64,000 bases of DNA from Thermoplasmata archaeon. Its GTDB lineage: Archaea > Thermoplasmatota > Thermoplasmata > GCA-020350865. A model generated the notes under the pieces. That model saw only the letters and a list, made by a program, of their open reading frames with translations, did no database searches and had not been told where the DNA came from. The stretch lies in NCBI GenBank assembly GCA_020348445.1, contig CP070751.1:516594-580593 (forward strand), in the 5' to 3' direction. Below, in pieces: positions 6,584 through 45,800 of this stretch; the first letter of the stretch is position 1; the number at the start of each line of letters is the position of its first letter. Position numbers and translations under genes: made by a program.

Positions 6584-8065
6584 TCAATAAACCAGATTTT
6601 CAACTACCCATTCACAATCACAGGTTGCATGCATCCAGTATCCCTTGCCTGGTTCCATGTACTCCCAGTCCTCTAGATTTTTTAAGACCTTGGTTGCATT
6701 ATCCTGGTGCATGATAGTATCCACTTCACTTCCAAAAGTAAGATTGTTTAGGGCATCATCTCTCAATCTCTTTATGCTGGAAGGATATCCGACTAGGTTC
6801 CAACCTCGATTTAGTGTGATAATCTGGGAGGAGTTCGGGGATTCTTCATTGAGCGAAAGTTCGGCTCCGTTGGGATCTATTATCTGAATCCAAAAACCCA
6901 TTTTGTTGTCCAAGTCACACAAATCATTCATATGCGACGGTTTTTCTATGTAACAATGTTTCCACGGATCTGAAACATCCGAAGATTTGTAAGCTTGCAC
7001 GGCGCGATACTCAGCGGAAATAGAGCCCAGAACGTATCCCAAGCTAGTATTTGCCACCATATTTGGAAAGGAAATTAGGTTCCAACCTTTCCAAAGGGAT
7101 ATGGGAGAAATCGGGGGGGACGGGATTGAATCATTAACTGTTATCGTATTGAAGGCCTTGTTGTTTCCTTCATCTGTTTCTGATATAAGGTTATCGCAAT
7201 CAACAACAACATAGATATCGTGTTCCCCGGAGGAGCCTGTGGTGTCCCATATTGTATTCACCATTGCAGATTCACCTTGTATCAAAATATGTGGGATCTG
7301 CTGCTCATCTCCTACCTGGAGACCACCTGTATCTGGGTCACCATCAAAGAATTTAATATGTACGGGGTATGCATCTGTTACACCTAAGTTATAGATGGTA
7401 GTGGATATGGTGACCTGTTGCCCTTCATAAGGAAATTCAGGAGAGAACTCTATATCTGTTTCATCCGTAAAAAGTTCCACTGATACAGATGCTCCACCAA
7501 AGTCAGCTGTATAAAGCGCGGAATTGGAATATCCATCCCAGTCTCCCACAAGTATTCCCAAACCTATTTCTTCAAAGTTTGGATTGATAATAATATCCCA
7601 ATGACCTGGACTGTTCTTCCAGGCCGACATACACCATTCTACATCTATCCCCCAAGTATTGTAGGCTATACATTCTCCAATATAGCTGTTTTCATACTCG
7701 GCATAATTTCTAACACGCTCAGAAAAACTGACACCATTGAATTGCCCCTGTTCAGATGATGAATGATCAAAAAAGTCATAGTCTATCATATCCTGGCTGT
7801 GAGCCCTTGCAACCCACCATAAGGTGGTGTTGAGTTTCAAAGGTCCGGCTCCATTGTCAGAGCGGTTCTCGTTGATCTTGTCCAGAAGTTGAAGTTCGGA
7901 AGTTGTGGGTACTATGTTGCCGTATTTTCCAGCCTCTACATTCTGGACTATATTATATGGTGAATAAAAAAATGTAAATAGAAACATCAGTATGATTAAG
8001 ACTACCATTACCGAGTGCTTGAATTTAATTTGTGATTTATCATTTCTTTTTGTGGACATGTTCAC
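6584..8065 (-). CDS. Secreted CAP (SCP/YkwD-like) + CARDB protein with a C-terminal duplicated GWNL domain, paralog 1
   Basis: CAP motifs INENR, ARAHSQDM, IGECIA and WKNSPGHWDII; CARDB motif VVVDCDNLISETDEGNN; LWKGWNLISFP and LNRGWNLVGYP. Confidence 0.88.
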   Translation of the reverse strand: MNMSTKRNDKSQIKFKHSVMVVLIILMFLFTFFYSPYNIVQNVEAGKYGNIVPTTSELQLLDKINENRSDNGAGPLKLNTTLWWVARAHSQDMIDYDFFDHSSSEQGQFNGVSFSERVRNYAEYENSYIGECIAYNTWGIDVEWCMSAWKNSPGHWDIIINPNFEEIGLGILVGDWDGYSNSALYTADFGGASVSVELFTDETDIEFSPEFPYEGQQVTISTTIYNLGVTDAYPVHIKFFDGDPDTGGLQVGDEQQIPHILIQGESAMVNTIWDTTGSSGEHDIYVVVDCDNLISETDEGNNKAFNTITVNDSIPSPPISPISLWKGWNLISFPNMVANTSLGYVLGSISAEYRAVQAYKSSDVSDPWKHCYIEKPSHMNDLCDLDNKMGFWIQIIDPNGAELSLNEESPNSSQIITLNRGWNLVGYPSSIKRLRDDALNNLTFGSEVDTIMHQDNATKVLKNLEDWEYMEPGKGYWMHATCDCEWVVENLVY

Positions 8066-8335: not shown

Positions 8336-9805
8336 CTAGTTATTTACCACCCATTCACATTTCTCAGTGGCGAAAATCCAGTATCCTTTCCCTGGTTCCA
8401 TATACTCCAATTCATCCAGGTGTTTGATGACCTTTGTAATATTGTCCTGATATAAGATGGCCTTTACCTCACCTCCAAAATTGAGGTTGTTCAGGGCATC
8501 ATTTCTCAATCTCTTGGTTGTCGAGGGGTACCCTACCAGGTTCCAACCCTCATTCAGTGTGACATTCTGAGGGGAGCTCGGTGCCTCCCCAGGGAGCATT
8601 AGGTCTGCTCCATCTGAATCCACGACATGTACCCAAAATCCTATTCTATTGTCCAAGTTGTACAAATCGTTCATATAAGGAAGCTTTGAGATGTGGTGAT
8701 GTTTCCAAGAATCTGAGGTATCAGAGGAATTGTAGGTCTGCACTGCGTCATACTCACCCGAAATGGAGCTTAGCACATATTCCATGCTCGTGTTTGAGAT
8801 GTTGATGGGGAAGGATACGAGATTCCAACCCAAATCAAGATGAATGGACCATGCAACAGGACTTACGATTATGGTTTTGAAGGCCTTGTTGTTATCCTCA
8901 TTGGTCTCAGAGATGAGCAGGTCATAATCCACAACAACATAGATATCATGACTGCCAACGGACCCTTTGGTGTCCCATATTATATTGACTGTTTCAGATT
9001 CCCCATGAATCAAGATGTGAGAAATCGAATACTCATCACCTATCTGTACCCCCCCGGCATCTGGATCACCATCATAGAATTCAACGTTGACAGGATAGGC
9101 ATCTGTTGTGCCCTGGTTGTAAATTGTTGCAGTGATGATCACATCCTGCCCTTCATACGGGGATGAAGGCTCAAATCCAATATCTGCCCCATCTATTGAG
9201 AGGTCTATTGAAACCGATCCTCCTCCATATACAGCTGTATGAAGCCCGGCATTGGGAGATCCATTCCATTCCCCTTCTAGCAAACCCAGTCCAATCTCAT
9301 GGAAATTGGGATCGATTATAATATCCCAATGAGAGGGGCTGTTCTTCCAACTGGCCATTGTACTCTCAACGTCTATTCCCCAGGTTTTGATGGCCAGGGT
9401 CTCACCAATGTAGGGACTTTCATACTCGGCATAATCGCCAACCCGTTCATAGAAGGTGGCACCAGCAAATGGGCCCTCCTCAGAGGAGGTATGGTTGAAA
9501 AAGTCGTGGTTTATCATATCCTGACTGTGTGCCCTGGCTACCCAGCAAAGGGAGGCATTGAATCTCAGTTCTCCCGCACCATTTGCAGTCCTATTCTCGT
9601 TTATCTTCTCCAATAGCTGAATCTCATATATTGTGGGCACGATATTTCCATACTTTCCTCCAGATACTGGGTGGATAAAATTTACAGATATTGTGAATAT
9701 GGATAAGGACAGAATAAGAAATAGAGAGACAGCAATCAACTTTCGATAAATATATCTCGATATATTCATAAACAATTCTCCCACACACACCAACAGCCTA
9801 ATCAA
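8336..9805 (-). CDS. Secreted CAP + CARDB protein with a C-terminal duplicated GWNL domain, paralog 2 (likely start ATG 9769)
   Basis: Same domain order and long identical peptides as 6584-8065 (GKYGNIVPT, VARAHSQDMI, TDAYPV, YMEPGKGYW). Confidence 0.88.
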   Translation of the reverse strand: MIRLLVCVGELFMNISRYIYRKLIAVSLFLILSLSIFTISVNFIHPVSGGKYGNIVPTIYEIQLLEKINENRTANGAGELRFNASLCWVARAHSQDMINHDFFNHTSSEEGPFAGATFYERVGDYAEYESPYIGETLAIKTWGIDVESTMASWKNSPSHWDIIIDPNFHEIGLGLLEGEWNGSPNAGLHTAVYGGGSVSIDLSIDGADIGFEPSSPYEGQDVIITATIYNQGTTDAYPVNVEFYDGDPDAGGVQIGDEYSISHILIHGESETVNIIWDTKGSVGSHDIYVVVDYDLLISETNEDNNKAFKTIIVSPVAWSIHLDLGWNLVSFPINISNTSMEYVLSSISGEYDAVQTYNSSDTSDSWKHHHISKLPYMNDLYNLDNRIGFWVHVVDSDGADLMLPGEAPSSPQNVTLNEGWNLVGYPSTTKRLRNDALNNLNFGGEVKAILYQDNITKVIKHLDELEYMEPGKGYWIFATEKCEWVVNN

Positions 9806-9893: not shown

Positions 9894-10658
9894 CTATACA
9901 TTCGAAGTTGGAGGTTTGGGTCCCTGGCTCGGTGGTTGCTTCGGAGTTTGCTTCGGGGCTGTTGTTGTAGCGGGTCTAGTTTCCCTTACAGGCCGTCTTC
10001 TAGGGGGTGCCCGAGTAGGTCTTTTTCGCTGCCTCTGGTACATGAGCTGAAAAGCAGCACCCAAACCGAACATAATACCTCCAGCAAGTACCGCATAAGC
10101 CAGTGCAAAATCTCCTCCTACAATGAAATAAACTGCGACACCTATTAGAAATCCTCCTATTGCGGCGAGAAACACGCTCACTATCTCCTCAACAAAGAAT
10201 ATCGCGATTATGAACACTATTACACCAACGACCAGACCTACAATTATGGGAGTATTAAGATCATCTGGATTTGCGGTATAAGTTAGATAGGCTGCCGCAC
10301 CAAAGGCTAAAAGCGCGCAAACCAAAGCAACAGCGGCCTTGGCCAGGTACTGAAACAACATACTACCTATGATGGCAAAGATGAACATCAACCCAAATCC
10401 GCATAAATATCCGCCGATGGCATATCCTATGGCAAAACCGATCATAGAACCGATAATGGCCCCTAAAATAGAGATCATGAACTCCCAAATGATTTCACCG
10501 AAAAAACATAGAAGTAAACCCACTATTAATAATAGAAGCCAAACCCATGTTGGAACACTGGCTATACTGATATCAGAGGTATCGATTCCATAAGGCACAA
10601 ACAGGCCTCCATGATATAGATTATGGATGATTTCATGGTATTTAGATATTATCCCCAT
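9894..10658 (-). CDS. Multi-pass membrane protein, DUF4203 / TM7S3-TMEM198-like, with a basic Pro-rich C-terminal tail
   Basis: GLLLCFFG motif followed by Gly-rich TM helices (GAIIGSMIG, AAIGGFLIG); about 7 TM segments; tail RQRKRPTRAPPRRRP. Confidence 0.7.
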   Translation of the reverse strand: MGIISKYHEIIHNLYHGGLFVPYGIDTSDISIASVPTWVWLLLLIVGLLLCFFGEIIWEFMISILGAIIGSMIGFAIGYAIGGYLCGFGLMFIFAIIGSMLFQYLAKAAVALVCALLAFGAAAYLTYTANPDDLNTPIIVGLVVGVIVFIIAIFFVEEIVSVFLAAIGGFLIGVAVYFIVGGDFALAYAVLAGGIMFGLGAAFQLMYQRQRKRPTRAPPRRRPVRETRPATTTAPKQTPKQPPSQGPKPPTSNV

Positions 10659-10725: not shown

Positions 10726-11586
10726 TTAACCTTTCACCTTTTGAACCATGAAGCGCCGTTTCATTCTGTTTTCTTTTACAATGGTCGATTTTTTGTAGCC
10801 CTGTTCTACTTTAGCCAGCAAGTCTATTACCTTCAATAGACCTTTTTTTGTGGGGTTCCTTATATCCACTCCCGCCTCACTGAATTGCCTTCTTATGATG
10901 GGCATAGCCAACTCCATATTTCCGAAGTTGCTGCAGAAATCATCTATTATCCGATCAGTTGCTAAAACCAGGGTCAACTCCTCCTCCAGGTCTTCCACAT
11001 CCATTCGCCCTTCACCCAGGTCCTCTCTTTCCTCAATGAGTCTGTTACCAAGGGTGAGAAACAAATCCTCGACATTTTCACCTGTCTTTGCGCTGCTTGA
11101 AAAGCATGTTGAGTCATATTTTGATGCTACTTTCTCCAGATCATCCAATGAAAACTGAGCATCCTCGGTCAAATCCGATTTGTTGGCAACAAAAATCAAT
11201 TGAAGCTGGGAAATGTTGTTGCCGAGACTTTTTAACCAGTAGTCCTCTAGGCTCCCCACAGTATCCCTTCTTGTGAAATCGCATACAAAAATTACACCAT
11301 CTGCCCCTTTGAAACTCGCAGTTTGAACGCTTCTGTAATCCTTCTGGCCAAGTACATCCCAAATCATCATTGTAAGATATATAATGTCACCGTTGTTCTT
11401 TATCTCCAATTCTTTCTTTGTGACCTTGGTCCCAATGGTAGCTATGTATTTATCGTCGAATTTGTCCATTACGAACTTTCGAATCAGGCTCGTTTTGCCT
11501 ACAGCCTCATCACCCAAAAGCAGAACCTTTCGCTTGATGTATTTGGATGTGGATTTTTGTGATATTCCACCTGATCGTTTGGACAT
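10726..11586 (-). CDS. Rab-like small GTPase with an extra ~95-aa C-terminal helical domain
   Basis: G1 GDEAVGKTS, G2 ATIGT, G3 WDVLGQ, G4 NKSD, G5 SAKTG; followed by LATDRIIDDFCSNFG...AGVDIRNPTKKGLLKVIDLLAKVE. Confidence 0.92.
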   Translation of the reverse strand: MSKRSGGISQKSTSKYIKRKVLLLGDEAVGKTSLIRKFVMDKFDDKYIATIGTKVTKKELEIKNNGDIIYLTMMIWDVLGQKDYRSVQTASFKGADGVIFVCDFTRRDTVGSLEDYWLKSLGNNISQLQLIFVANKSDLTEDAQFSLDDLEKVASKYDSTCFSSSAKTGENVEDLFLTLGNRLIEEREDLGEGRMDVEDLEEELTLVLATDRIIDDFCSNFGNMELAMPIIRRQFSEAGVDIRNPTKKGLLKVIDLLAKVEQGYKKSTIVKENRMKRRFMVQKVKG

Positions 11587-14153: not shown

Positions 14154-17100
14154 ATGGCATATAAGTACCAAGTGACGAAAATGATAGGAGAGCAATCCAA
14201 ATTCAAACCAGGCATAACCATTCACCTTATCTATATCTTGGCATTGATTGGCTTTATGATTTTTAGCTTTCTATCTAGCACCATGGCCTTGTCTATTGTA
14301 TCCACTCCAAACACCGAGCAATCGAGAGTATATCAAATTCCTGAGCCCTCCTCGAATATGCACATTTATATGAAGGCCGCATGCTTCGATCCTATAAAAG
14401 AAGAGCCAGGGATATCACCTGAGTGGACTTATACCTCGCCCAATCGCTATTTTTTGGTGCAATTTCATGGTCCCATTCAATCCCAATGGATTACGGACAT
14501 CCAATCATCTGGAGCTGTCATCTTGGGATACATACCGCAATACTCTTACTTACTCTCCATGGATATGGATGTGAAAGAGAGAATTGAAAATCTCCAATTT
14601 ATCAGATGGATTGGTTTATATCATCCAGCATATAAGATTCAAAGCCACCTTTATGAGAAACAAGGAGAAATCGAGCTCAATTTGCTGGTCTTTGAAGATC
14701 ATCATGACAATCTACACAAAGTGAGAACTCAACTGATGGCAATGGGGGGGGAAATTACTTATGCGGGGGAGGACAATCATATAATAAGGGTGAAGATAGA
14801 CGCATCCGAGTTAAAAAGCATAGCATTTATACCTGAGGTGGAATGGATCGATTTATACTCAAAACCTGTTGCTACAATGAATAAGATCCGCGCTTTCACA
14901 GGGGCCAACACCCTCTCTTCTGCTGGTTTCACAGGCTCCGGCATTGTGGGTGAAGTAAAGGACGACGGCATAGACCAAAGTCATCCGGATTTTGATGGAC
15001 AGCTGATAGGCACAGATGGTGGTCCTCCAAACGCATCACACGGCACTTGCGCTTTCGGTGTAGTGTTTTCCAATGGTGGAGGTGATTCAAATGCCATGGG
15101 AATGCTTCCCGGGGGAAAGGGTGTTTTTTGTGATTGGGGTGTCTCTACTACAACTTCTATTAGCAATCTCGTCTATACCTGGGGGGGTGTATTTCAGAGC
15201 AACAGTTGGAGTGCAGGTGCAGATGATAGCACCTACACCACAGTTTCTTTTGAGAACGATGAAGCTATAGACGATTTTGATATCGTCATGCTCCATTCAG
15301 CAGGCAATGACGGAATTGCACAGGAGACATGCACCCAGGACTCAGTGGCCAAGAATGTCATAGGCGTGGGTGCCGTGACTCATTATGACAATATCCTTAG
15401 ATCCGACGACAAATGGGTACTTTCGGTTGCAGGTAGCACCCCTGCACAGGGTCCTGCTTCCGATGGAAGGGTAAAACCAGATCTGGTGGGGCCTTTTGAT
15501 TCCATCTACACCACGGATGTTGTTGGAAATGGCGGATATAATCCTGGGGACTATTACAATTTCGCAGGAACAAGCGGTGCCACACCAGTTGTCGCAGGGG
15601 CTGTGGGTTTGGTTTACCAGATGTACAAGGAAAATTTTTTTGGTAACAACCCAGGGGGAGGGCTACCCCACGCCTCTACTGTCAAGGCCTTATTGATCGC
15701 AAATGCATATCAGTACGATTTCTCAAAGGCGAACAGGTTTCAGCAGGGTTGGGGAGGGGTGGATGTGGGGCGTGTATACGAAATGGGCCAGAATCACTTT
15801 ATCGTGAATGAAGATGACTCCCTTCAAACAGGTTTCAGTGAAATATATGAGATCACAACTCAAGGTGGGGAGCCCTTGAAGATATCCTTGGTATGGACGG
15901 ATTTACCACAACCACTTCCCGCAACAAAGCCTCTCATCAACGATTTGCATTTAAAGGTAACAGACCCCAACAATGTCGTTTACTGGGGGAATGTAGGGTT
16001 GAACACCTCCAAATGGTCCTCCGCAGGCGGAAGTGCCGATACAATAAACAATGTTGAGAACGTGTTCATAGAGAATCCCACACCAGGTTTCTGGACAGTG
16101 GAGGTGATCGGAGGAAATATTCCTTTGGATGGCGATCCCACAGTCCCGGGTGTAAACCAGGCATATGCTCTAATTGCATCAAATGCAATAGAAACATTGA
16201 CCGTCGATATTACGAATCCATCATCTTCCGAAATTTTGAATGATATCATTACGATAACAGGCATTTCATCTGAACATGTTAGCCAGGTTGAGGTGAGGAT
16301 AGATAGTGGTTCTTGGGAGTTGGCATCAGGAACCACAGATTGGTCTTTCGAATGGGACACCCGCTTATTTTCTGATGGGGATCATACAATATATGTTAGG
16401 GGAGTCAACGGAACAATGTATTCGAAAGTCAAGTCAGTTGAGGTATCGCTTGATAACACCCCCCCGACAACCTCGATTATTGTAGGAGATCCAAAATACC
16501 TAAACGGCTCCCAATTGTTCGTCTCTGATTTGACTCAATTCAATTTAAATGCCGCAGACAGCGGAAGCGGATTATTTTATACACGATATCGGATAGTTTA
16601 CGAGGGAAACGAGGTTGTGGGTTGGACAATTGGCAATTCATTTACACTTTCGTGGGGTGAGGGCTACTATACGATCCAATACGACAGTGAAGACATGTTA
16701 GGAAACAAAGAGGCTACCAATACAACCTTCGCGTATGTGGATTCATCCTCTCCAAAAACCAGTTTACAGATTGGAATGCCAAAATACCGCGACTACTCTT
16801 TTCATGTATTGAATGTTACTAACTCTACACCTTTTACCATATTGCTTTTGGAGGAGGCAAGCTCAGTGGATTTTTTCTGGTACACTATCGATGGGGCATA
16901 TTTTTTGGGTCAGACCTTTGATTTGACAGGTTTTCTTGACGGTATTCATATAATTACTTGGGGGAGCCAGGATGTCTTCGGCTTTAATGAATCTGGCAAT
17001 GAAATCAATGTGACTCTGGATTCAACAGCCCCCGATACATTCTTGGATATTGGTCCTTTAAAATTCCGCGAATTTTCATTTGACTTGTGGAATGTCACAT

Positions 17101-19673
17101 CAGCTACGCAATTCTCCCTTAGCGCGAGCGATACTCATGTTGGCATTAACTTCACATGGTACACCATTGATGGAATCTTTTTTATGGGGGATGAATTTAA
17201 CCTTACAGGCTTCCTGGGTGGCCTGCATACTATATGCTGGGGTAGCGAGGACCATTTTGGCAATAACGAAACTGACAAATCAAAGGATGTAATTCTTGAT
17301 TCCGGGCCCCCGAATACCATAATAGATGTGGGCCTGTCCAAGTTCCGTGGTTCTTCATTTGACTCCTGGAATGTTACTCCATCCACAAAATTTACCCTGA
17401 GCTCAATTGACGATGCAGCAGGTGTCGATTTCACATGGTATACCATCGATGGAGTCTATTTTGAGGGTACGAGCTTTACAATGGATGGTTTAGACGATGG
17501 GCTACATACAATAGCAATGGGAGCCATGGACAATTTAGGGAATAATAGATCCGAAGCCGCGATTACGGTTTACCTGGACTCCAGGTCACCTGAATCGAAC
17601 CTCTCAATCGGTGAGCCAAAATATCACTTGTCCATAGACGACATCTGGAATGTAACAGAATCCACCTCCTTTTTATTGTCATCCTGGGATGAGCATGCAG
17701 GTGTGAAGAGCATATGGTTCAAGATTGATGGTGTTTACTTTGTAGGTTCTTTATTCAATCTCTCAGGTTATACGAACGGATTTTATACAATTGTCTGGGG
17801 TGCAATAGATAACCTTGGACATAACGAGACTGGACATTCTACTACCGTATTTTTGGATACTGACTCTCCTTATACGGAACTCGCCATTGATGAGCCAAAA
17901 CATCGGGATAAAGACGGAGATATCTGGAATATATCGACATCCACCACATTTTCACTTTTATCTCTTGATAATCGCTCGGGTGTAAAATTCTCGTGGTTCA
18001 CCATTAATGGAATGTATTTTGAAGGCACAGGCTTTAGTCTTTTTGGCTATCCAGAAGGTTATTACATCATCATCTGGGGAAGTGAGGACTTCCTTGGGAA
18101 TAACGAGACAGGAAAAACAGAAACAGTTTATTTAAGCTCAGCCATTCCAACCACCACGTTGGAGATGAATGGGGAAAGATATTGGGACTCGATTAATGAT
18201 CTATGGATTGTTACAGATGAAACACTCTTTCTCTTGACACCCGAACCCACGCCTATAGGGATAAACTTCACCTGGTACATGATCGATTCTAATTATTTTG
18301 TTGGAGCTCAATTCTCGCTCTCCGGTATAGAGGAAGGAATTCACAGGATAAAATGGGGAAGTCAAGATACCATGGGTTTCAACGAAACTGAAAACTTCCA
18401 GTATGTGATTCTGGATTTACAACCTCCAGAGACAAATTTAACCATGGGCAGCCCCAAATATCGAGAACCTGAAGAAGAGGTTTGGGCCGTTAGTAGAAAC
18501 ACTAAATTCACAATTATATCCTCGGATAATCACTCTGGAGTATCCTCCATCTGGTACATGATAGATGACGATTTCTTTTTGGGCTCGAGCTTTACATTGG
18601 ATGGATACGATGACGGTCCACATAGGATAAGTTGGGGTGCAGTGGACAATCTCGGCTATAACGAGACAAAACGGGAAATGAATATCTTTATTGACAATGA
18701 CGGTCCAACAGTTACTTTTGAAATCGGGGAACCAAATATTCCCTACAACGATTATATTCTGATAAATTCTTCATCTGCCATATCTTTTAATGATGAGGAT
18801 TCGGGTGTTGGTAATACCGTGATTTATTACTCTATTGACGGTGGCATAACATATCAGGTGTACGATTCGCCTTTCACGGTCCCCTACAAAACCATGAGGA
18901 TCATTTACTGGGCTGAGGATATCCTGGGCAACAGGGCCAACGAATACGTAATCAACGTGAAGGTGGACAATACTGATACTGATTCTGATAAAATAGATGA
19001 TATCGTCGATACTGATGATGACGGGGACGGTTTACTTGACATCGAAGAAGATATAAATCAAAATGGAATCGTGGATCCTGAAGAGACGGATCCTAAGAAC
19101 CCAGATACCGATTATGACGGATATTTGGATGGAGACGATCCTTATCCTTTGGATAAGAGTGACTGGGAAGGGGAACAAGAATCCGTTTCTGTATTCCTCA
19201 TACTCATTATCCTTGTGATTGTGGTATTTGCTATCCTCTTTATCTTCATCATGATCATGGATAGGGACAGCATGGCAAAAACCCAATGGACTTTCCCTGC
19301 CCACCCACAAGTTCCTGGTCAAGGGGGATATGAACGGACTGGCCAACAAGAGACAGGTGTTAATATCCAAAAAGAGCAGGCTGAGTCAATAGGTGAAGAG
19401 GAGATTGCATTTGAACCCCATGATGAGGAATCCTATGAAGAGGAGGTCGAGTTTGAGCCCCATGATGAACCGACTGAAGAGGAAGTCGAATTTGAGCCGC
19501 ATGATGAAGAATCCTATGAAGAGGAGGTCGAGTTTGAACCACATGACGAACCGACTGAAGAGGAAGTTGAGTTTGAGCCCCACGATGAACCGGATGAGGA
19601 AGTTCAATTTGAACCGCATGATGAACTATCTGAAGGGGAGGGGGAAGAGGAGCCTCCACCTCCTGATGATTAA
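14154..19673 (+). CDS. Membrane-anchored S8 (subtilisin-family) serine protease with propeptide, P/PPC-like domain, about 9 Ig-like repeats, TSP3-like Ca loops, a TM helix and an acidic repeat tail
   Basis: Catalytic Asp (VKDDGID), His (HGTCAFG), oxyanion Asn (SAGNDG) and Ser (GTSGATPVVAG); VKPDLVGP; ~97-aa repeats DxxPPxT...WYxIDG...WGSxDxLGxNET; DTDxDG loops; TM VFLILIILVIVVFAILFIFIMIM. Confidence 0.93.
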   Translation: MAYKYQVTKMIGEQSKFKPGITIHLIYILALIGFMIFSFLSSTMALSIVSTPNTEQSRVYQIPEPSSNMHIYMKAACFDPIKEEPGISPEWTYTSPNRYFLVQFHGPIQSQWITDIQSSGAVILGYIPQYSYLLSMDMDVKERIENLQFIRWIGLYHPAYKIQSHLYEKQGEIELNLLVFEDHHDNLHKVRTQLMAMGGEITYAGEDNHIIRVKIDASELKSIAFIPEVEWIDLYSKPVATMNKIRAFTGANTLSSAGFTGSGIVGEVKDDGIDQSHPDFDGQLIGTDGGPPNASHGTCAFGVVFSNGGGDSNAMGMLPGGKGVFCDWGVSTTTSISNLVYTWGGVFQSNSWSAGADDSTYTTVSFENDEAIDDFDIVMLHSAGNDGIAQETCTQDSVAKNVIGVGAVTHYDNILRSDDKWVLSVAGSTPAQGPASDGRVKPDLVGPFDSIYTTDVVGNGGYNPGDYYNFAGTSGATPVVAGAVGLVYQMYKENFFGNNPGGGLPHASTVKALLIANAYQYDFSKANRFQQGWGGVDVGRVYEMGQNHFIVNEDDSLQTGFSEIYEITTQGGEPLKISLVWTDLPQPLPATKPLINDLHLKVTDPNNVVYWGNVGLNTSKWSSAGGSADTINNVENVFIENPTPGFWTVEVIGGNIPLDGDPTVPGVNQAYALIASNAIETLTVDITNPSSSEILNDIITITGISSEHVSQVEVRIDSGSWELASGTTDWSFEWDTRLFSDGDHTIYVRGVNGTMYSKVKSVEVSLDNTPPTTSIIVGDPKYLNGSQLFVSDLTQFNLNAADSGSGLFYTRYRIVYEGNEVVGWTIGNSFTLSWGEGYYTIQYDSEDMLGNKEATNTTFAYVDSSSPKTSLQIGMPKYRDYSFHVLNVTNSTPFTILLLEEASSVDFFWYTIDGAYFLGQTFDLTGFLDGIHIITWGSQDVFGFNESGNEINVTLDSTAPDTFLDIGPLKFREFSFDLWNVTSATQFSLSASDTHVGINFTWYTIDGIFFMGDEFNLTGFLGGLHTICWGSEDHFGNNETDKSKDVILDSGPPNTIIDVGLSKFRGSSFDSWNVTPSTKFTLSSIDDAAGVDFTWYTIDGVYFEGTSFTMDGLDDGLHTIAMGAMDNLGNNRSEAAITVYLDSRSPESNLSIGEPKYHLSIDDIWNVTESTSFLLSSWDEHAGVKSIWFKIDGVYFVGSLFNLSGYTNGFYTIVWGAIDNLGHNETGHSTTVFLDTDSPYTELAIDEPKHRDKDGDIWNISTSTTFSLLSLDNRSGVKFSWFTINGMYFEGTGFSLFGYPEGYYIIIWGSEDFLGNNETGKTETVYLSSAIPTTTLEMNGERYWDSINDLWIVTDETLFLLTPEPTPIGINFTWYMIDSNYFVGAQFSLSGIEEGIHRIKWGSQDTMGFNETENFQYVILDLQPPETNLTMGSPKYREPEEEVWAVSRNTKFTIISSDNHSGVSSIWYMIDDDFFLGSSFTLDGYDDGPHRISWGAVDNLGYNETKREMNIFIDNDGPTVTFEIGEPNIPYNDYILINSSSAISFNDEDSGVGNTVIYYSIDGGITYQVYDSPFTVPYKTMRIIYWAEDILGNRANEYVINVKVDNTDTDSDKIDDIVDTDDDGDGLLDIEEDINQNGIVDPEETDPKNPDTDYDGYLDGDDPYPLDKSDWEGEQESVSVFLILIILVIVVFAILFIFIMIMDRDSMAKTQWTFPAHPQVPGQGGYERTGQQETGVNIQKEQAESIGEEEIAFEPHDEESYEEEVEFEPHDEPTEEEVEFEPHDEESYEEEVEFEPHDEPTEEEVEFEPHDEPDEEVQFEPHDELSEGEGEEEPPPPDD
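19410..19625 (+). repeat. Coding tandem repeat: six FEPHDE-headed units (alternating 42 and 39 nt) in the protease C-terminal tail
   Basis: FEPHDEESYEEEVE / FEPHDEPTEEEVE twice, then FEPHDEPDEEVQ and FEPHDE. Confidence 0.95.
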
Positions 19674-37696: not shown

Positions 37697-40600
37697 TTAC
37701 CCTTCATCCCACTCAACAACCACGATCCCGATTACCGCCTTCTCGCCAGCCAGTTCCTTCTCCACAACGTAATAACCTGAATCCCCTCCCTCGAAAATAT
37801 TGTCGAATGGAAACTCCACAGAATATGAGCGAGTTTTTGATGTGATGAGTTCCTTTTGGCCTTCAAGAATCTCGGCAGTTTTATCTGGAACAAAGATCTG
37901 AGTTTCTATGTAGTCTTCCTCTTTGATCTTCAATTCCTTTCTCATGTCATTTATGTACCCGATAAGCTCATCAACGATCCCTTCAGATTTCATCTCCTCT
38001 GTCAATTCTTTATCGATGTAAATCTTTCCCTTTTCGAACTCCTTTTCCACCACATTTTCAGGTGTGCTCAGCTTGAATTCCAACATAGCGTTTGTGATTT
38101 TTACAGGATAACCCTCTACACCAAGGGTGTATTCCCCTTCCTTTTCTAGGCTCTCTTTGATCTTCCATGGTGATTGATATCGAAGGAGAGTCATCACCTT
38201 GCTGGCCTGCTGCTTGTAGGCACGAAATATTACCTCTTTTTTTGGAATCAATTCCAAATTTAGACCCTGCCATTCCGTACCCGGCTTTAAGAGCTCCAAA
38301 TTCTTTGCCTTCACCTTTCTAATAATTGGGATCTCAAACTTTGTTACAGCGTCTCTTACCTCATCTTCCGAGGATTTTATCACTACATTCTTTATTGGAT
38401 CTGTTTCATTTAATCCAGATTCATTTCGCATACCTAAAATAACCTCGATAACCCCGTCTACTATTTTCAGATAGTGCTCTAGGCTGTCACCGATATCCCT
38501 TATAATATGCTCATCAACATCACTTAATAACGCATGTTTGAGCTCTTCCATTCCCTCCTTTTTTGTCCGGTATTCTGCACTGGTTTCCTCTGCTTCGCGG
38601 CTCATCTTTTCCAGGTAGTTCCACGCGTTTTCAAATCCCTCCTTTTCTATGATTTCGATGAGCTTATTGGTAAAGGTCTCAGGGCCCACGATGTCAACAC
38701 CCTCCTCGCTTGCAGCTTGGATCAGTCTGATCGTCGAGGCCACGGTTCCTGATTCAAATCCCTCAACCTCTGCTCCCTTTTCATCCGTGACCTTCATTAA
38801 CTTTTCTATTAGTTCTTCTAAACCTCCCAGTTTATCATAAGTACCATCCCAGTCTCCGAGTACAGAACCGTACTTCTGCTCCACTTCATTTACAACTTCT
38901 AACATGTATAGCGGCAGATATTTGGGTTCTCCCCCTATAAGGACGGCAACCAGGTAGGTATATCGACCATGCTCAATCATCAACTTGCTCGGTCCAAAAT
39001 CCATTCTTTTAAGACCCACATCCTCCATTCTCTTAAACGAATCCTTAACAAAATCCTGAATCGCTGTCAACATCCCACTGAACACATCACTGTCCACATC
39101 CGTCTGCAATCTTCTGGTAACCTGAGTTACCAAAATCCCGCTATTATGTATGAGAAATACATTTTCTATTGAGTATGTCCCGCTCTCATCAATTTCAATT
39201 TTCTTTCCCAGGGTAAGCTGATAGATGGTATCATCAAAGGCTCTTTGGTATGTAAGGAGGACATCTGTATCGAGATCTCCGGATTCTTTAGGTTTCAATC
39301 CTATTTCTATCTGCTTCTTCTCACCTGCATCGAGTTTTTCTAATCTGTCAAGCCCCTTAACTTCCACCTCCCCCTGAAAGCTGATATCCACATTTTTAGC
39401 TGCAAGGTCTCCTGTGTTGTCTATCTCGATTACACATTTGTTCCAATAATCAGCCTCCATGCCGCCCTTTGGAAGTTTCAAAGTAAACTTTGGGAATTTA
39501 CCTTGTATATACTCTTCTACATTGCTTGAGGTTATACCTCTTGCTTTTTCTATCAATTCCTTTGCCTCATGAAAGTGATCAATATTCAGCTCATTTTCGG
39601 CCTCAACCAAAAGATCATATGCCTCCTGAACATCAACCTTCATTTCCTTTATCTCGGCCAAAGTCTCCTTTACAGTTTCAAGTTCCACTTTTATATCGTG
39701 TTTTATCCTCAGGTCCTCGGCAAGTTTTTCTGCCTCATCAACATGTTCCTTTGCAGATTCGAATTTATTGGTTTTAAATTCCTTGTCTGCGAGAGCCAAA
39801 ATTGCCTCTGGTTTTTCGACATCAATTCCCATTTCCTTAAATTGTGATATAAGGACCATTGCGTTTTTGATCCTTCTCCATATTATGTCTGTCTTTTGCT
39901 TTAATTTCACTTCCTCAAGTTTCTTTTGGAATTTATCCTGAAAATTATCGATTTCTTCGAAGTTACCAGCATCTATGGCGCGTTCGGCCTCTTCAATTAG
40001 GGCCAAGAATTCATCCTCACTCATTCCCCCTTCCTTTGCAACCGACATAAGATCCCTCATAGCAGAAATCTTTGTCCTGGCGGTGTCGGTGCTTATCTCT
40101 TTTTCCACCTCTTTTCCTTTATTTTGAAGGTAGGACCATGCTCGTTCGAATCCCCCTTCTTCAATGTTCTCGAGAAACTCATTTATAAATGCTTCCTGTC
40201 CGCTCTCCAATACACCCTTTTCCTCAGCTTCCTCGATTTGCCTGATTGTGGAAGCTACCAATCCTGATTCAAATCCTACAATATCTGCACCTTTCTCGTC
40301 AGTGACCTGCAACAGCTTCTTAATGTAAATTTCTATTCCTTCGAGTTGGGAAAGATCACCACGCCATCCTTCAAGAATAGCGCCGTACTCCTCCTCCAAT
40401 TCCTTTATCACCTCAACCATATACAATGGAAGGTATCTTGGCTCACCGCCTGCAAGTATAGCAGTAAGAAAGATGTCGTGACCGTGCTCAATCAATATCT
40501 TGTTTCCGCCAAAGTCCATTCTCTTAAGTCCCACATCATCTGTTCTCTGAAAGGAATCCTTTATGAAGTCCTGAACAGCCGTGAACATACCGCTGAATAT

Positions 40601-43600
40601 GTCTCTGTCAAGTTCTGTTTCCATTTTTCTGCTAGCTTGGCTGATAAGGATACCACTGTTGTGTATCAGCAGAACCTCTTCTATCATGTAAGTGCCACTA
40701 GCGTCAGCTATGATATTCTTCCCGATATTTAGCTGATAGATGGTATCATCAAAAGCCCTTTGATAGGCCAAAACAACATTCATATCCAATTTTCCGGCTT
40801 CTTTTGGTTTTATACCGATGTCCACCTGCCATGTCTCTCCAATTTCGATTTTTTCAATTCTTTCTATGCCTTTAACCTCCAAATTTCCGCTGATGCTTAT
40901 GTTCACATTCTTTGCATAAAGTTCCCCTATATTTGAAATCTCTATTTGACATTTGTTCCATACATCGGCCTCCATTCCCCCCTCCGGTATATCTAATGTG
41001 AACTTTGGATATTTCCCTTCGATAAAATCCTCAATATTATTTGAAATGATGTTCCTCGCCTTTTTAATCAATTCCCTTGCTTTTTCCAAGTTGAACACTA
41101 TTATCTCATTCTCTGCTTCAATCAAAATAACATCCGATTCACCAACATCAACACCCAACTCCCTGATCTCATCTTGGGTCTTGCGTACAGAATTTAGCTC
41201 GATTTCTACATCATGCTTTCGCCGCATTTCATCGGCAATCTGTTCAGCTTCATCCACGAGCTCCTCTGCTTTTTCGTATTCACCTGCCTTAAACTTTAAA
41301 TCGGCCATGGCCAAAAGCTCCTCTGGCTTTCCCACATCAACTCCCATATCCTTAAACTGAGAAATCAGAACCAAGGCGTTATTTATCCGCCTTTCGATGA
41401 TATCTGTCCTTTGTTTAAATTTAGCTTCTTCCATTTTTTTCTCGAATGTATCCTTGTATTCATCGATAACGTCAAAATTTTCAGAGGCAAGGGCTGACTC
41501 GGCCTCGCTAACTATAGAGAGGGTTTCTTCGGTGCTTATACCCCATTCCTTTGCAGAGGATAAAAGGTCTCTCATAGCCGATATCTTTTCTTTGGCCTTC
41601 TCGGTATTTATTTCCTTAGTTACATATTCTCCTTTATCTTCAATATAGTTCCAGGCATGTTCAAATCCCATATTTTGCATGGTTTCTATGAACTCTTCTA
41701 CAAAGGCTTCCTGCCCCCCCTTGAGAATACCATCAGCTTCAGCAGCCTCAATGAGTCTTATTGTCTCAGCAACCTTACCAGATTCGAATCCAGCTACATC
41801 AGCACCTTTTTCATCTGTTACATGCAGAAGTCTTGCAATAATTTCGTCAACACCATCCACCTCTGAATGGTCCCCCCGCCATTTTTCAAGAACAGGACCG
41901 TATTTCTCTTGCACCTCCCTTAGAATCTCCACCATGAACAGCGGTAAAAATCTCGGTTCACCTCCAATAGTTATGGCTGTAAGAAAAATATTATTCCCGT
42001 GCTCTAGTAATATCTTATTTGCCCCGAAATCCATCCTTTTTAGCCCCACATCAGCGGTTTTTTGAAAAGAATCCCTGATAAAATCCTGAACAGCCGTGAA
42101 CATCCCGCTAAATATATCTCTGTCAATATCCATCTCCATTTTTCTGCTGGCTTGGGAAATGAGGATGCCGCTTCTGTGTATCAAAAGTACCTCTTCGATA
42201 AGGTAGGTTCCGCTGGTGTCAGCCATGATCTTCATCGCCATATCGAGCTGGAAAACGGTTTCATCAAAGGCTCTTTGATATTTGAAGAGAACATCCATAT
42301 CGAGTTTTCCAGACTCCTTTGGTTTTACCCCGATTTCCATACGTTTTTTCTCACCTGCTCCCAGCTTTTCGATTCTGGAAAGCCCCTTTACATCCATGTC
42401 ACCCTTGAAAATCATATCAACATTTTTAGCCCCTATATCACCTGTGTTAGCTATCTCGATTGTACATTTATTCCATGTATCTGCCTCTATACCGGTTTCA
42501 GGGAGTTTTACCAAAAACTTGGGGGATTTGCCCTCGATGAAGTCCTGAATTCTGTTTGAACTGATGCTTTTTGCTTTTTGAATCAATTCTGTTGCCTGGT
42601 TAACATTGTTGGCCCCAATTTCAATCTCAGCTTGGGTCAATAGAGAATTTGCCTCTTCAATATCGACACCTGAATCCCTTGCTTCAGTTATTATGTTTTT
42701 AATGGACTCAAGTTCATGTTCTGTGTCGTGTTTCTGATGATGCTCTTTTGCTGTTTTTTGGGCATTATCCGCGTGCTCATCGGCTTTTTCGAAATTATGT
42801 GCGGACAATTCTTGATCTGCAAGCATCAGAAGTTCCTCGGCCCTTTCGACTTTTATCTTCTGTTCTTTTAATTGGGCAATCATAGCTCGGACTTTCTCGA
42901 TTTTCTTACCGATTATATCGGTCCTGTGCATTACTTTGGCTTCATCCAGCTTATCCTCAAATGACTCCTTGTACTCCTCAATTATGTCGAAATCCTTGGC
43001 CTCGAATGCCTCCTCGGCCTTTTTTAGCAGGGTCATGAATTCTGGTCCCTCTATCCCCAATTCCTTTGCTGAAGTTAAAAGGTCCCTCATGGCAGTTATT
43101 CTTGCCCTAGCCATCTCCGCACTTATCTTTCTTTCAGCCTCACTGAAAATCATATCGATCTTCTCGAGATCCACGAGCTTTGCTTTGGAGAACAGATCGG
43201 ATGCAAGACTTCCTATGGGTATATTCAATGATTTGGCTATTGCATTTAACTCCGAGATTATCTGTTCTATTTCTGAATGGTCTATTTTCTCAGCTGCCAC
43301 CTTGGCCCTTTCAAAGAGCATTCTTAAATCAGTTGCATCAAGGCCTCTTGCCTCGGCCTTATGCATTATATGGTCTATGGTTGCTATCAAAACGTTTGCG
43401 GCTTTGCGTTCCATGGCCTTTTTAATCCTTCTTTTTATCTTCCTAATCAGGCTTCTGACCTCTGCATAATCTCGCATCTCCAGGGATGACTCCGCCTCTA
43501 CAAGCAGCTCCTCGATTTCCTCGGTCTGAACTCCCACGTGTTTTAAAGATTCTACTTCTGGTTTCAAACCCGCTATGAGTTCTTTAACCTTCATATGTTT

Positions 43601-44212
43601 TTGAAGTTTGGTTGCTGCGTTTTTTGCATTTCTTACCAATTGGCTGACAACACCGTAATCCTTTTTTTCCAGGGCGGCCCGAGCCTCATCTAGGAATTTT
43701 TCGGCCTCTGTTACATCAGCTCCCACCATTTTTGCGTTTGCGATATCGTTCTTACTATTTTCGATCATGAGATATGCCCTATGGTATCTCTTAGCCTCCT
43801 TGGCCTCACGCTTGGCAGATCTTATATGTTCACTAACATCACCGTACATCTTATTTTGAAGGGATTCCCTGGCCCTCTCAATAAAACTCTCGGCTGCGCT
43901 TGCATCGGCTCCGGCCCTTCTCGCATCATTTACCACAGGCAAGGCATGTTTGATAAGAAGATCAGCACGGTGATAGCGTTTTGCATCAGCAGCAGCGGTT
44001 TTAGCCTTTTTAACAGAGATCCTTACCTGTTTAATATTCAATTCAGAAAGAAAGGCCCTAGCCTCATCCAGGTACATCTTTGCCTCAGATAAATCTGCAC
44101 CTGTTTTCTCGGCCTCATTTATGTCGATTTCCGCACTTTTTACAAGTACTTCTGCGTCTTCAAGCTCTTTCGAGCTCACTTGGGGTCTTTCACCTGTATC
44201 TTCATCTGCCAC
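37697..44212 (-). CDS. Giant cytoplasmic repeat protein: N-terminal helical repeats + 3x(helical repeats, Ig-like, longin-like) + IleRS C-terminal-like region
   Basis: 2171 aa, GTG start with a GGAGG RBS, no signal peptide or TM helix. Three modules have an exact 505-aa period. C-terminal LTEEMKSEGIVDELIGYINDMRKELKIKEEDYI resembles the type-2 IleRS tail. Confidence 0.9.
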   Translation of the reverse strand: MADEDTGERPQVSSKELEDAEVLVKSAEIDINEAEKTGADLSEAKMYLDEARAFLSELNIKQVRISVKKAKTAAADAKRYHRADLLIKHALPVVNDARRAGADASAAESFIERARESLQNKMYGDVSEHIRSAKREAKEAKRYHRAYLMIENSKNDIANAKMVGADVTEAEKFLDEARAALEKKDYGVVSQLVRNAKNAATKLQKHMKVKELIAGLKPEVESLKHVGVQTEEIEELLVEAESSLEMRDYAEVRSLIRKIKRRIKKAMERKAANVLIATIDHIMHKAEARGLDATDLRMLFERAKVAAEKIDHSEIEQIISELNAIAKSLNIPIGSLASDLFSKAKLVDLEKIDMIFSEAERKISAEMARARITAMRDLLTSAKELGIEGPEFMTLLKKAEEAFEAKDFDIIEEYKESFEDKLDEAKVMHRTDIIGKKIEKVRAMIAQLKEQKIKVERAEELLMLADQELSAHNFEKADEHADNAQKTAKEHHQKHDTEHELESIKNIITEARDSGVDIEEANSLLTQAEIEIGANNVNQATELIQKAKSISSNRIQDFIEGKSPKFLVKLPETGIEADTWNKCTIEIANTGDIGAKNVDMIFKGDMDVKGLSRIEKLGAGEKKRMEIGVKPKESGKLDMDVLFKYQRAFDETVFQLDMAMKIMADTSGTYLIEEVLLIHRSGILISQASRKMEMDIDRDIFSGMFTAVQDFIRDSFQKTADVGLKRMDFGANKILLEHGNNIFLTAITIGGEPRFLPLFMVEILREVQEKYGPVLEKWRGDHSEVDGVDEIIARLLHVTDEKGADVAGFESGKVAETIRLIEAAEADGILKGGQEAFVEEFIETMQNMGFEHAWNYIEDKGEYVTKEINTEKAKEKISAMRDLLSSAKEWGISTEETLSIVSEAESALASENFDVIDEYKDTFEKKMEEAKFKQRTDIIERRINNALVLISQFKDMGVDVGKPEELLAMADLKFKAGEYEKAEELVDEAEQIADEMRRKHDVEIELNSVRKTQDEIRELGVDVGESDVILIEAENEIIVFNLEKARELIKKARNIISNNIEDFIEGKYPKFTLDIPEGGMEADVWNKCQIEISNIGELYAKNVNISISGNLEVKGIERIEKIEIGETWQVDIGIKPKEAGKLDMNVVLAYQRAFDDTIYQLNIGKNIIADASGTYMIEEVLLIHNSGILISQASRKMETELDRDIFSGMFTAVQDFIKDSFQRTDDVGLKRMDFGGNKILIEHGHDIFLTAILAGGEPRYLPLYMVEVIKELEEEYGAILEGWRGDLSQLEGIEIYIKKLLQVTDEKGADIVGFESGLVASTIRQIEEAEEKGVLESGQEAFINEFLENIEEGGFERAWSYLQNKGKEVEKEISTDTARTKISAMRDLMSVAKEGGMSEDEFLALIEEAERAIDAGNFEEIDNFQDKFQKKLEEVKLKQKTDIIWRRIKNAMVLISQFKEMGIDVEKPEAILALADKEFKTNKFESAKEHVDEAEKLAEDLRIKHDIKVELETVKETLAEIKEMKVDVQEAYDLLVEAENELNIDHFHEAKELIEKARGITSSNVEEYIQGKFPKFTLKLPKGGMEADYWNKCVIEIDNTGDLAAKNVDISFQGEVEVKGLDRLEKLDAGEKKQIEIGLKPKESGDLDTDVLLTYQRAFDDTIYQLTLGKKIEIDESGTYSIENVFLIHNSGILVTQVTRRLQTDVDSDVFSGMLTAIQDFVKDSFKRMEDVGLKRMDFGPSKLMIEHGRYTYLVAVLIGGEPKYLPLYMLEVVNEVEQKYGSVLGDWDGTYDKLGGLEELIEKLMKVTDEKGAEVEGFESGTVASTIRLIQAASEEGVDIVGPETFTNKLIEIIEKEGFENAWNYLEKMSREAEETSAEYRTKKEGMEELKHALLSDVDEHIIRDIGDSLEHYLKIVDGVIEVILGMRNESGLNETDPIKNVVIKSSEDEVRDAVTKFEIPIIRKVKAKNLELLKPGTEWQGLNLELIPKKEVIFRAYKQQASKVMTLLRYQSPWKIKESLEKEGEYTLGVEGYPVKITNAMLEFKLSTPENVVEKEFEKGKIYIDKELTEEMKSEGIVDELIGYINDMRKELKIKEEDYIETQIFVPDKTAEILEGQKELITSKTRSYSVEFPFDNIFEGGDSGYYVVEKELAGEKAVIGIVVVEWDEG
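38545..43110 (-). repeat. Three tandem intragenic repeats of 1515 nt (505 aa); boundaries approximate
   Basis: The ATG of AMRDL falls at 43090, 41575 and 40060 (spacing 1515, 1515). YQRAFD, GLKRMDFG, GGEP, VTDEKGA and GFESG are present in every copy. Confidence 0.95.
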
Positions 44213-44376: not shown

Positions 44377-45678
44377 TCAATGTCCCTCTATATTTAAGGT
44401 AGCCATGGCCTCACTGACATTGAAAATCGAGCCTGATATGCATATAATCCCGTTTTTTTCCGCTTTTTTTATTGCTTGGCTAACAGCCTCTGCAACATTT
44501 TCGATAACAACAACATCGCTAAGGTACTTTTTTGCCTCGCTTTCTATCCTTTCAGGTAAAGCAGCCCTTTCGAACTTCGGTTTCGTGACTATGATGCAAT
44601 GTGCCTTAGGGGCCACCTCCTTTATAATCCCTGGGATATCCTTATCCCTCATTATACCAATTACAAATGTAAGTGGTCTTTTTGAAAACAAATCCGTCAA
44701 TGTGGATACCAAAGCCCTCATCCCCGCAGGATTATGTGCGCAATCAAGTACTATAGTTGGCTCTTTTTGTACTATTTCCATTCTGGCGGGCCACCTTGTG
44801 GTCTCAAATCCCCTTTTGACACTTTCTTCGGGAATGTCCATTCCTTTCTTTTTTAAAACCTCCAGCGTTAACACGCAAACCAGTGCATTTTTAAGTTGAT
44901 ACTCCCCCAAAAGTGGTATCTTTAAATCTTTATATCGACGATCTTTCAATTCTATCTCAAATATCTGCCCATCAAGACTCGATTCATTACTAATTATATT
45001 CCCTTGCTCCTTATGAGAATATATCTGGGCCTTTTTCTCCTCACATATCTTTTTTATAATATTTAGTATGTCATCATCCTCTATCCCCGTTACAACCGGA
45101 ACATTATTCTTTATTATACCAGCTTTTTCCCTTGCCACTTCCTTAAATGTTTTTCCCAGAACATGTGTATGATCCAAGGCAATGGTTGTAATGACCGAAG
45201 CTGTGGGATATACGACGTTCGTGGCATCCAGTCTTCCACCTAGTCCCACCTCCAGTATGGCGATATCCACTTTTTCTTCCTTAAAGTGCTCAAATGCCAT
45301 TGCACATGCGGTCTCAAAAAAGGTTGGATGGTCGAATTTTCCGCTCTTTACCATTGATTCGGATATGGACTTAATTCTTTCTGCCAGCTGGATTACCTTG
45401 TCCTTGGAAATTTTATTTTGGTCAACCAGAATACGCTCCTCGAAGGATAATAGATGGGGAGATGTAAACAAACCCACCTTGTAACCTGCCGAAACCAAAA
45501 TAGATGAAAGCATGGCACAGACCGAACCCTTGCCGTTTGTACCAGCGACATGTACGGCCTTCATGTTTTTTTGCGGATCGCCCAGTGTTTTTAAAAGAAA
45601 CTCGATTCTCTCAAGCCCCAAGCTCATTCCGTATATCTTGAGGTTAAAGAGATATTCAATGGCTTCATCGTAGTCCAT
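44377..45678 (-). CDS. folC: Folylpolyglutamate synthase / dihydrofolate synthase
   Basis: HVAGTNGKGS, FTSPHL, EVGLGGRLDATN, IAxDH, REKAGIIK, WPARME and DCAHNP motifs. Confidence 0.95.
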   Translation of the reverse strand: MDYDEAIEYLFNLKIYGMSLGLERIEFLLKTLGDPQKNMKAVHVAGTNGKGSVCAMLSSILVSAGYKVGLFTSPHLLSFEERILVDQNKISKDKVIQLAERIKSISESMVKSGKFDHPTFFETACAMAFEHFKEEKVDIAILEVGLGGRLDATNVVYPTASVITTIALDHTHVLGKTFKEVAREKAGIIKNNVPVVTGIEDDDILNIIKKICEEKKAQIYSHKEQGNIISNESSLDGQIFEIELKDRRYKDLKIPLLGEYQLKNALVCVLTLEVLKKKGMDIPEESVKRGFETTRWPARMEIVQKEPTIVLDCAHNPAGMRALVSTLTDLFSKRPLTFVIGIMRDKDIPGIIKEVAPKAHCIIVTKPKFERAALPERIESEAKKYLSDVVVIENVAEAVSQAIKKAEKNGIICISGSIFNVSEAMATLNIEGH

Positions 45679-45800
45679 TTTTCTCCTGCCACCCAAAGCC
45701 TTTCTGGTTAATAAGGCTGACGAAAGAGCAGGTAACCTACTACAACACTCACTGAGGTTTTATGTCCCCTTAAAATCCAAAAGGTATCTTTCGAAAAAGC

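Follow-up and report, generated by a model that had tools for sequence, protein, structure and literature searches.

A soluble multi-module protein of Thermoplasmata with predicted longin-fold heads and an isoleucyl-tRNA synthetase-derived tail: a candidate docking scaffold for small GTPases

Introduction

What purpose might a soluble archaeal protein of more than two thousand residues serve, if one and the same module recurs in it at exactly constant length? The question is raised by a gene on contig CP070751.1 (GenBank assembly GCA_020348445.1) of a Thermoplasmata archaeon, which lies within a stretch of 64,000 nucleotides (positions 516,594 to 580,593 of the forward strand) referred to below as the window. 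A sequence-only reading of this stretch had described the product, here called the scaffold, as three modules, each with helical repeats, an immunoglobulin (Ig)-like beta sandwich and an alpha/beta domain of longin-like appearance, and had compared it with the TRAPP-type complexes of eukaryotes. The analysis reported here indicates that the alpha/beta domain, as modelled, has a longin fold, that its family is associated with Ras/Rab-like GTPases in the genomes of the class, and that the scaffold ends in a domain derived from isoleucyl-tRNA synthetase (IleRS). On this basis, we tentatively favour a role as a multivalent cytoplasmic hub whose heads would dock small GTPases.

Results

A predicted longin fold in the alpha/beta domain

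The isolated alpha/beta domain was modelled on 21 paralogous sequences, with a predicted local distance difference test score (pLDDT) of 80.3; inside a model of the whole module the same domain reaches about 88, and there, too, VIA-align matches it to longin domains. The topology is b-b-a-b-b-b-a-a, with a five-stranded sheet between helices, and DSSP assigned strands at residues 9-18 and 23-28, a helix at 37-55, strands at 62-68, 71-77 and 81-89, a helix at 95-114 and further helices thereafter. When the domain model was compared with about 48,000 PDB representatives using VIA-align, the top 13 rows consisted without exception of longin domains and longin-fold subunits, at Z 10.6-13.1 over 116-131 aligned residues. 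Sec22 was the best structural match (Z 13.1, root-mean-square deviation (rmsd) 2.7 Å, 124 residues aligned), and further Z scores were 12.9 for VAMP7, 11.7 for synbindin, 11.4 for both AP-3 sigma and Fuzzy, 11.3 for Ykt6, 11.2 for sedlin, 11.0 for a Lokiarchaeota longin domain and 10.3 for Mon1-Ccz1. Roadblock domains ranked below these, at Z 8-9 over about 100 aligned residues. Foldseek likewise agreed with the longin fold (Sec22b, TM-scores 0.68/0.75), and in the alignment all three scaffold copies retain the Gly, Trp and Gly (the W-x-G motif) that are invariant in the family. Topology and both structure comparisons thus bear out the longin-like assignment of the sequence-only reading; no other fold emerged, and the domain is, in the models, a longin fold.

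Sequence profiles gave little. In a Pfam scan no family, including PF13774, PF19036, PF03259 and others, rose above its curated cut-off for the longin-like domains of the scaffold, and sub-threshold matches were confined to four of the 21 paralogues, three to Robl_LC7 (best E 0.004) and one to Fuz_longin_1 (E 0.003). A profile search of the PDB sequences with the longin-like alignment returned chance matches to designed proteins only. The profiles PF13774 (Longin) and PF04051 (Bet3/TRAPP) found nothing in the scaffold's own genome, which is 82% complete, the controls of these searches being silent too.

A domain family on surface proteins, NTPases and soluble proteins

A profile of the longin-like domain retrieved 6616 clusters at E ≤ 1e-3, 707 of them at E ≤ 1e-30. 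The named records that carry the domain are almost all from Thermoplasmata, precomputed Pfam lists assign it no family, and one relative has been named 'roadblock/LC7 domain-containing' by NCBI. Within the scaffold's own genome, 21 copies are spread over 19 open reading frames (ORFs). About 11 of these encode giant surface proteins (1643-5179 residues) with a signal or anchor segment, Ig-type repeats, one transmembrane helix, basic residues and a longin-like cytoplasmic tail, and three encode small membrane proteins. Another four (L020-L023) are AAA_16/TPR STAND NTPases of 937-986 residues in which the domain is inserted just after the Walker A motif; L020 and L022 each lie no more than 60 bp from a Ras-like GTPase gene, which in the case of L022 is 2.8 kb from the adjoining L023. 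The remaining two are soluble, namely the scaffold and a SAP-domain protein of 1178 residues (L019, C1:3106502-3110035, minus strand). The latter contains a longin-plus-linker unit 51% identical to that of the scaffold, as well as three SAP-domain stretches; given the IleRS-derived tail of the scaffold, described below, both soluble members therefore end in domains of nucleic-acid-binding type.

Association with Ras/Rab-like GTPases

The same genome holds 34 full-length Ras-family genes, and most of the encoded GTPases keep W-D-x-x-G-Q, with the G3 glutamine. They form two classes, a short one of about 180-200 residues and a long one of about 285-305 residues, the latter with a conserved helical C-terminal extension bearing the motif D-x-I-I-x-D-F-C ... 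A-M-x-I-L-R-x-Q-F. A Ras gene lies within 2 kb of six of the 19 longin ORFs, against an expectation of 0.93 (maximum five in 2000 random placements), and six GTPase genes follow the gene of the 5179-residue surface protein. In a survey of the class, in which 201 genomes were sampled, the longin-like domain was found in 132 and Ras (E ≤ 1e-20) in 135, with almost identical patterns by family: both are missing from all 20 genomes of family f6, and in f18 one genome in 20 has each of them, the same genome (G194) in both cases. Related genomes are not independent, and the co-occurrence is therefore a pattern and not a statistic.

As for the scaffold itself, a Ras/Roc GTPase gene abuts it in all three loci examined of family f9; in two it lies downstream, in the third upstream, where the two genes overlap by 14 nt. 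The best match to this GTPase in the scaffold's own genome is a long-class Ras/Rab-like GTPase of 286 residues encoded within the window (10726-11586, minus strand). Behind it, also on the minus strand, come the genes of a 254-residue protein without a Pfam match (9894-10658) and of two CAP+CARDB proteins (8336-9805 and 6584-8065); a second, short GTPase is encoded at 5878-6426 on the plus strand. Gene neighbourhood and phyletic co-occurrence together support the link to small GTPases that the sequence-only suggestion of a machine akin to guanine nucleotide exchange factors (GEFs) had implied.

A complex was predicted from the two longin heads of one f9 scaffold (L067, genome G173) and its adjacent GTPase. 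The score was 0.37, against 0.16 for the best of three controls, and is graded as weak support; at least 70% of the contacts are shared between runs, with a partner pLDDT of 70 or more. In calibration, 58 of 80 solved complexes passed, as did 2 of 110 mismatched pairs; passes at a score ≤ 0.60 comprised only seven of the 80 solved complexes and both mismatches. The use of own alignments and three chains departs from the calibration conditions. Moreover, solved longin-GTPase complexes exist, so that a pass may reflect likeness alone.

A C-terminal domain derived from IleRS

Pfam recognised DUF5915 in the scaffold C-terminus (E 2.5e-10, 40.7 bits against a cut-off of 27), a domain that had been missed in the sequence-only reading. 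BLASTP aligns the tail with residues 808-1060 of the IleRS of the same genome at 39% identity (E 1.2e-53), a profile of scaffold tails finds that IleRS at E 1e-92, and a weak match to the solved IleRS 8wnd was obtained in the PDB. The homology to the C-terminal domain of archaeal/eukaryotic-type IleRS is clear over about 260 residues. Unlike IleRS, the tail comes without catalytic, editing and anticodon-binding domains and sits at the end of a scaffold; Pfam found neither a tRNA-synt_1 (class I catalytic) nor an Anticodon_1 domain in the scaffold. A tree unites the scaffold tails in a single clade separate from the IleRS C-termini, which fits one old capture from IleRS. The tail is kept in every full-length scaffold, and it must matter for function.

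At four loci, which belong to families f15 and f20, the IleRS gene stands immediately after the scaffold gene. The IleRS of the lineage is extended by zinc ribbons and DUF835 (own genome, C1:2199006-2203025, minus strand; L060:1258-5745, minus strand), and in f15 and f20 also by helix-hairpin-helix motifs, to 1340-1495 residues.

Modules of constant length and a predicted helical rod

Self-comparison of the scaffold gave sharp peaks at offsets of 505 and 1010 residues, with 614 identities (37%) at offset 505 against a background of about 9%. The three modules align ungapped, with pairwise identities of 50-57% in protein and 62-65% in DNA, and where modules share a residue, its codon differs in about half of the cases. 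Tandem Repeats Finder reported no repeat; its longest period is 500 nt, and the 1515-nt period is invisible to it. No transmembrane segment was seen in a hydropathy scan, and an NCBIfam search of the scaffold returned no family. Module 2 was modelled with AlphaFold from 22 module sequences (pLDDT 88.3, predicted template modelling score 0.62); the model places helices at residues 2-194, in a short-short-long pattern every 63 residues, a beta sandwich at 201-300, the alpha/beta domain at 305-432 and helices at 448-504. The sandwich was found three times by Pfam as CARDB (PF07705; E 1.2e-11, 45.2 bits against a cut-off of 22.7) and resembles the Ig-like domains of transglutaminase and macroglobulin (VIA-align, Z 9-11). 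Much of what had been read from the letters therefore holds: the exact period of 505 residues (1515 nt) without indels, the lack of a transmembrane helix, the domain sizes and the CARDB-like sandwich of each module. The differing codons and the conservation in orthologues likewise speak for old, conserved duplications, and the architecture supports a single-chain, soluble, multivalent protein.

The helical part, by contrast, had been taken for an alpha-solenoid, a reading that was rejected on the model of module 2, which shows a chain of 63-residue three-helix bundles joined by continuous helices. Each helical unit of 60-76 residues resembles small three-helix bundles (VIA-align, Z about 10, a value common for helices). 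A hidden Markov model (HMM) of the unit finds three per module and identifies the linker after the longin domain as a degenerate copy. The N-terminal 365 residues consist of the same unit, in four clear and two weak copies (HMM matches at residues 19-78, 87-141, 150-200, 210-265, 284-325 and 347-367; self-identity at offsets 63 and 126), which had also escaped the earlier reading. The long helices continue from unit to unit, which argues for a chain of bundles and a rod rather than a solenoid; from the secondary structure of the model we infer that the helical part would be such a rod. Spectrin-repeat and EzrA-type rods share the three-helix bundles joined by continuous helices, but their unit has about 106 residues instead of 63 and bears no sequence relation to that of the scaffold, the sole lead being an Atlas score of 0.76 to EzrA; the likeness would be an analogy of shape only. 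Whole-module Foldseek gave no global match (adaptin-appendage and BBSome rows lay at rmsd above 10 Å and were not used), and the ESM Atlas returned only unnamed Thermoplasmatota clusters for the N-terminal region.

Relatives and module number

The scaffold gene was found in 40 of the 201 genomes, in about ten families of the class, and its full-length relatives come solely from metagenome bins of Thermoplasmata, part of which carry the label Methanomassiliicoccales. Each of 17 loci examined (16 genomes and the window) has a single scaffold ORF. Orthologues of the same length are 60-67% identical, and orthologue modules are 503-505 residues long; for one orthologue a further Pfam entry, PF26403, is listed. 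Two modules are the usual state; three are confined to this genus, in which two-module proteins of 1664-1669 residues also occur (2171-505 = 1666). In a quick module tree, the search for which was unfinished, the last modules group together, module 3 being orthologous to the last module of two-module relatives, and modules 1 and 2 of the three-module proteins fall with module 1 of the two-module ones. The grouping suggests, tentatively, that the extra module was copied from the first, and this may have happened more than once. In distant orthologues of about 2290-2430 residues (L057, P0018, P0021) the first module is preceded by helical units that span about 1100 residues, and P0018 and P0021 begin with a zinc-ribbon-like Cys motif.

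Apart from the GTPase and IleRS genes described above, the neighbours of the scaffold gene are housekeeping genes; the synteny with such genes (ribulose-phosphate epimerase, FEN1, DUF92) in f22, f25 and f29 was regarded as uninformative.

Coordinates and neighbouring genes

The scaffold gene and its parts are listed in Table 1. On the same strand, 165 bp upstream, lies a Mur-ligase-family gene (Mur_ligase_M and Mur_ligase_C; 44377-45696, minus strand); a genome of the same genus (G039, L056) has a long ORF of 475 residues at the equivalent position. The window also encodes a subtilase of 1839 residues with several bacterial Ig-like domains (14154-19673, plus strand).

Table 1. The scaffold gene and its parts, in window coordinates (aa, residues of the scaffold)
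Feature	Position	Strand	Remarks
Whole scaffold gene	37697..44212	-	2171 aa, GTG start, soluble, net charge about -141
N-terminal region, aa 1-365	43118..44212	-	six copies of the 63-aa helical unit, two of them weak
Module 1, aa 366-870	41603..43117	-	three helical units, CARDB, longin-like domain, helical linker
Module 1 CARDB	42209-42526	-	
Module 1 longin-like domain	41822-42205	-	
Module 2, aa 871-1375	40088..41602	-	used for the AlphaFold model; VIA-align matches by region
Module 2 helical units	41021-41602	-	
Module 2 CARDB	40694-41011	-	
Module 2 domain with predicted longin fold, aa 1175-1302	40307..40690	-	model, structure comparison, alignment
Module 2 helical linker	40088-40306	-	
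Module 3, aa 1376-1880	38573..40087	-	three helical units, CARDB, longin-like domain, helical linker
Module 3 CARDB	39179-39496	-	
Module 3 longin-like domain	38792-39175	-	
C-terminal domain, aa ~1907-2165, DUF5915/IleRS-like	37718..38494	-	Pfam, BLASTP, weak PDB match to IleRS

Discussion

Literature searches on longin domains in Thermoplasmatota, archaea and Euryarchaeota, on small GTPases and roadblock in Thermoplasmata, and on DUF5915 returned nothing on the scaffold or the longin-like family, in line with the earlier impression of an architecture without a published description. The closest known assemblies are the longin platforms of eukaryotes and Asgard archaea, i.e. sedlin, synbindin and Bet5 of TRAPP, Mon1-Ccz1, Fuzzy-Inturned, the AP sigma and mu subunits, SRX and the Lokiarchaeota Roadblock-Longin protein 8yqg, with which the scaffold shares fold and topology (Z 10-13), the combination of several longin domains in one assembly and a coupling of its family to Ras/Rab-like GTPases at the genome level. 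Unlike these, it belongs to the Thermoplasmata and has no significant sequence-profile match to their Pfam families, and its heads lie about 380 residues apart along a single chain, separated by helices and CARDB, instead of being packed as a heterodimer core; the tri-longin GEFs have three contiguous longin domains in each subunit. The TRAPP-type layout proposed from the sequence thus stands as far as the longin fold goes, fails for the alpha-solenoid, which is replaced by a chain of bundles, and is a loose analogy overall.

MglB, a Roadblock/LC7 protein of bacteria and archaea that regulates the small GTPase MglA, has a related alpha/beta sandwich, and three of the 21 longin-like domains match the Robl_LC7 profile weakly; the C-terminal helices and strand order nevertheless fit longin better, and separate, true Robl_LC7 genes exist in the same genome. 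In bacterial Group 1 Rup neighbourhoods, a GTPase gene stands beside genes for a coiled-coil cytoplasmic protein and for a protein with an unnamed domain, a transmembrane segment and OmpA; these GTPases lack the G3 glutamine, and the four conserved neighbour genes include an output enzyme (Wuichet and Sogaard-Andersen 2014, PMC4316618). That paper names no longin fold and describes neither a multi-module scaffold nor an IleRS-derived domain. The longin-like profile weakly matches cyanobacterial 'OmpA family' fragments, whereas most GTPases here carry G-Q in G3, and neither a diguanylate cyclase nor a histidine kinase was seen beside the scaffold at the loci examined.

The reading that we favour, held tentatively and at somewhat short of even chances, is that of a multivalent GTPase-docking scaffold in the cytoplasm. 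Each longin head would dock a small GTPase, as a platform, a regulator or an effector site, and the protein would act as a hub of a GTPase network to which the surface proteins, too, would be wired. The rod would fix the spacing between the heads, which would explain the exact module length, and the IleRS-derived tail would add another ligand, most simply tRNA-Ile or IleRS itself. Several points weigh against this. Longin domains have other partners as well (SNARE motifs, coat subunits, one another), and a common fold does not prove a common function. Membership of the domain in the named longin or Roadblock families is marginal by profile, the complex score is weak and its calibration not strictly applicable. 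A GTPase gene adjoins only three of the 17 scaffold loci, all in f9, and the nearest one in the scaffold's own genome lies 26 kb away. Finally, many genomes have the longin-like domain and GTPases without a scaffold, which is therefore not an obligatory part of the network.

Dimers are frequent among longin and Roadblock domains, and the lineage often has no rigid cell wall. By analogy, the heads might instead pair with the longin tails of surface proteins while the GTPases act elsewhere, so that the rod would tie several receptors together beneath the membrane as a crosslinker or cortical skeleton. The position of the longin-like domain directly after the single transmembrane helix in about 11 giant surface proteins fits this proposal, as do the spectrin-like chain of bundles with its weak lead to EzrA, the exactly held module length expected of a spacer, and the Asgard longin domain solved as a dimer (8yqg). 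We nonetheless consider it unlikely, as the scaffold was not found in many genomes with longin-tailed proteins, and both the IleRS-derived tail and the GTPase adjacency in f9 would be left unexplained. The IleRS-derived tail can also be placed at the centre, as the functional core of a translation- or tRNA-linked factor that would bind tRNA-Ile or IleRS. The protein would then be a scaffold associated with aminoacyl-tRNA synthetases, and its longin modules protein-binding accessories unrelated to GTPases. The 39% identity to the genome's own IleRS, the occurrence of the tail in every full-length scaffold, the single clade expected of one capture, and the four loci in which the IleRS gene comes next are all consistent with such a factor. 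It is nevertheless quite improbable: the catalytic and anticodon-binding domains are absent, the adjacency is confined to two families, most of the mass and the most conserved motifs reside in the longin modules, and tRNA binding by DUF5915 is assumed by extension from class I synthetases in general. A docking scaffold could also join both ligands in one sensor of nutrient or translation status, the tail reading tRNA-Ile (e.g. its charging state) or IleRS and the heads setting the state of Rab-like GTPases, so that one prokaryotic chain would correspond to the arrangement of leucyl-tRNA synthetase, Rag GTPase and Ragulator in eukaryotes. We regard this as a long shot; if true, it would tie small-GTPase signalling to synthetase-derived sensing in a group that is neither eukaryotic nor Asgard.

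Longin platforms and expanded sets of Rab-like GTPases are usually taken as distinctive of eukaryotes and Asgard archaea. The present lineage, which is not Asgard, combines dozens of such GTPases, a family of predicted longin-fold domains on receptor tails and NTPases, and a conserved soluble rod with two or three heads, whose synthetase-derived tail offers a concrete second candidate site for a ligand. If the heads do dock GTPases, the scaffold would provide a simple single-chain system in which to study how a longin platform engages a GTPase, and would suggest that such wiring arose, or existed, outside the eukaryotic stem.

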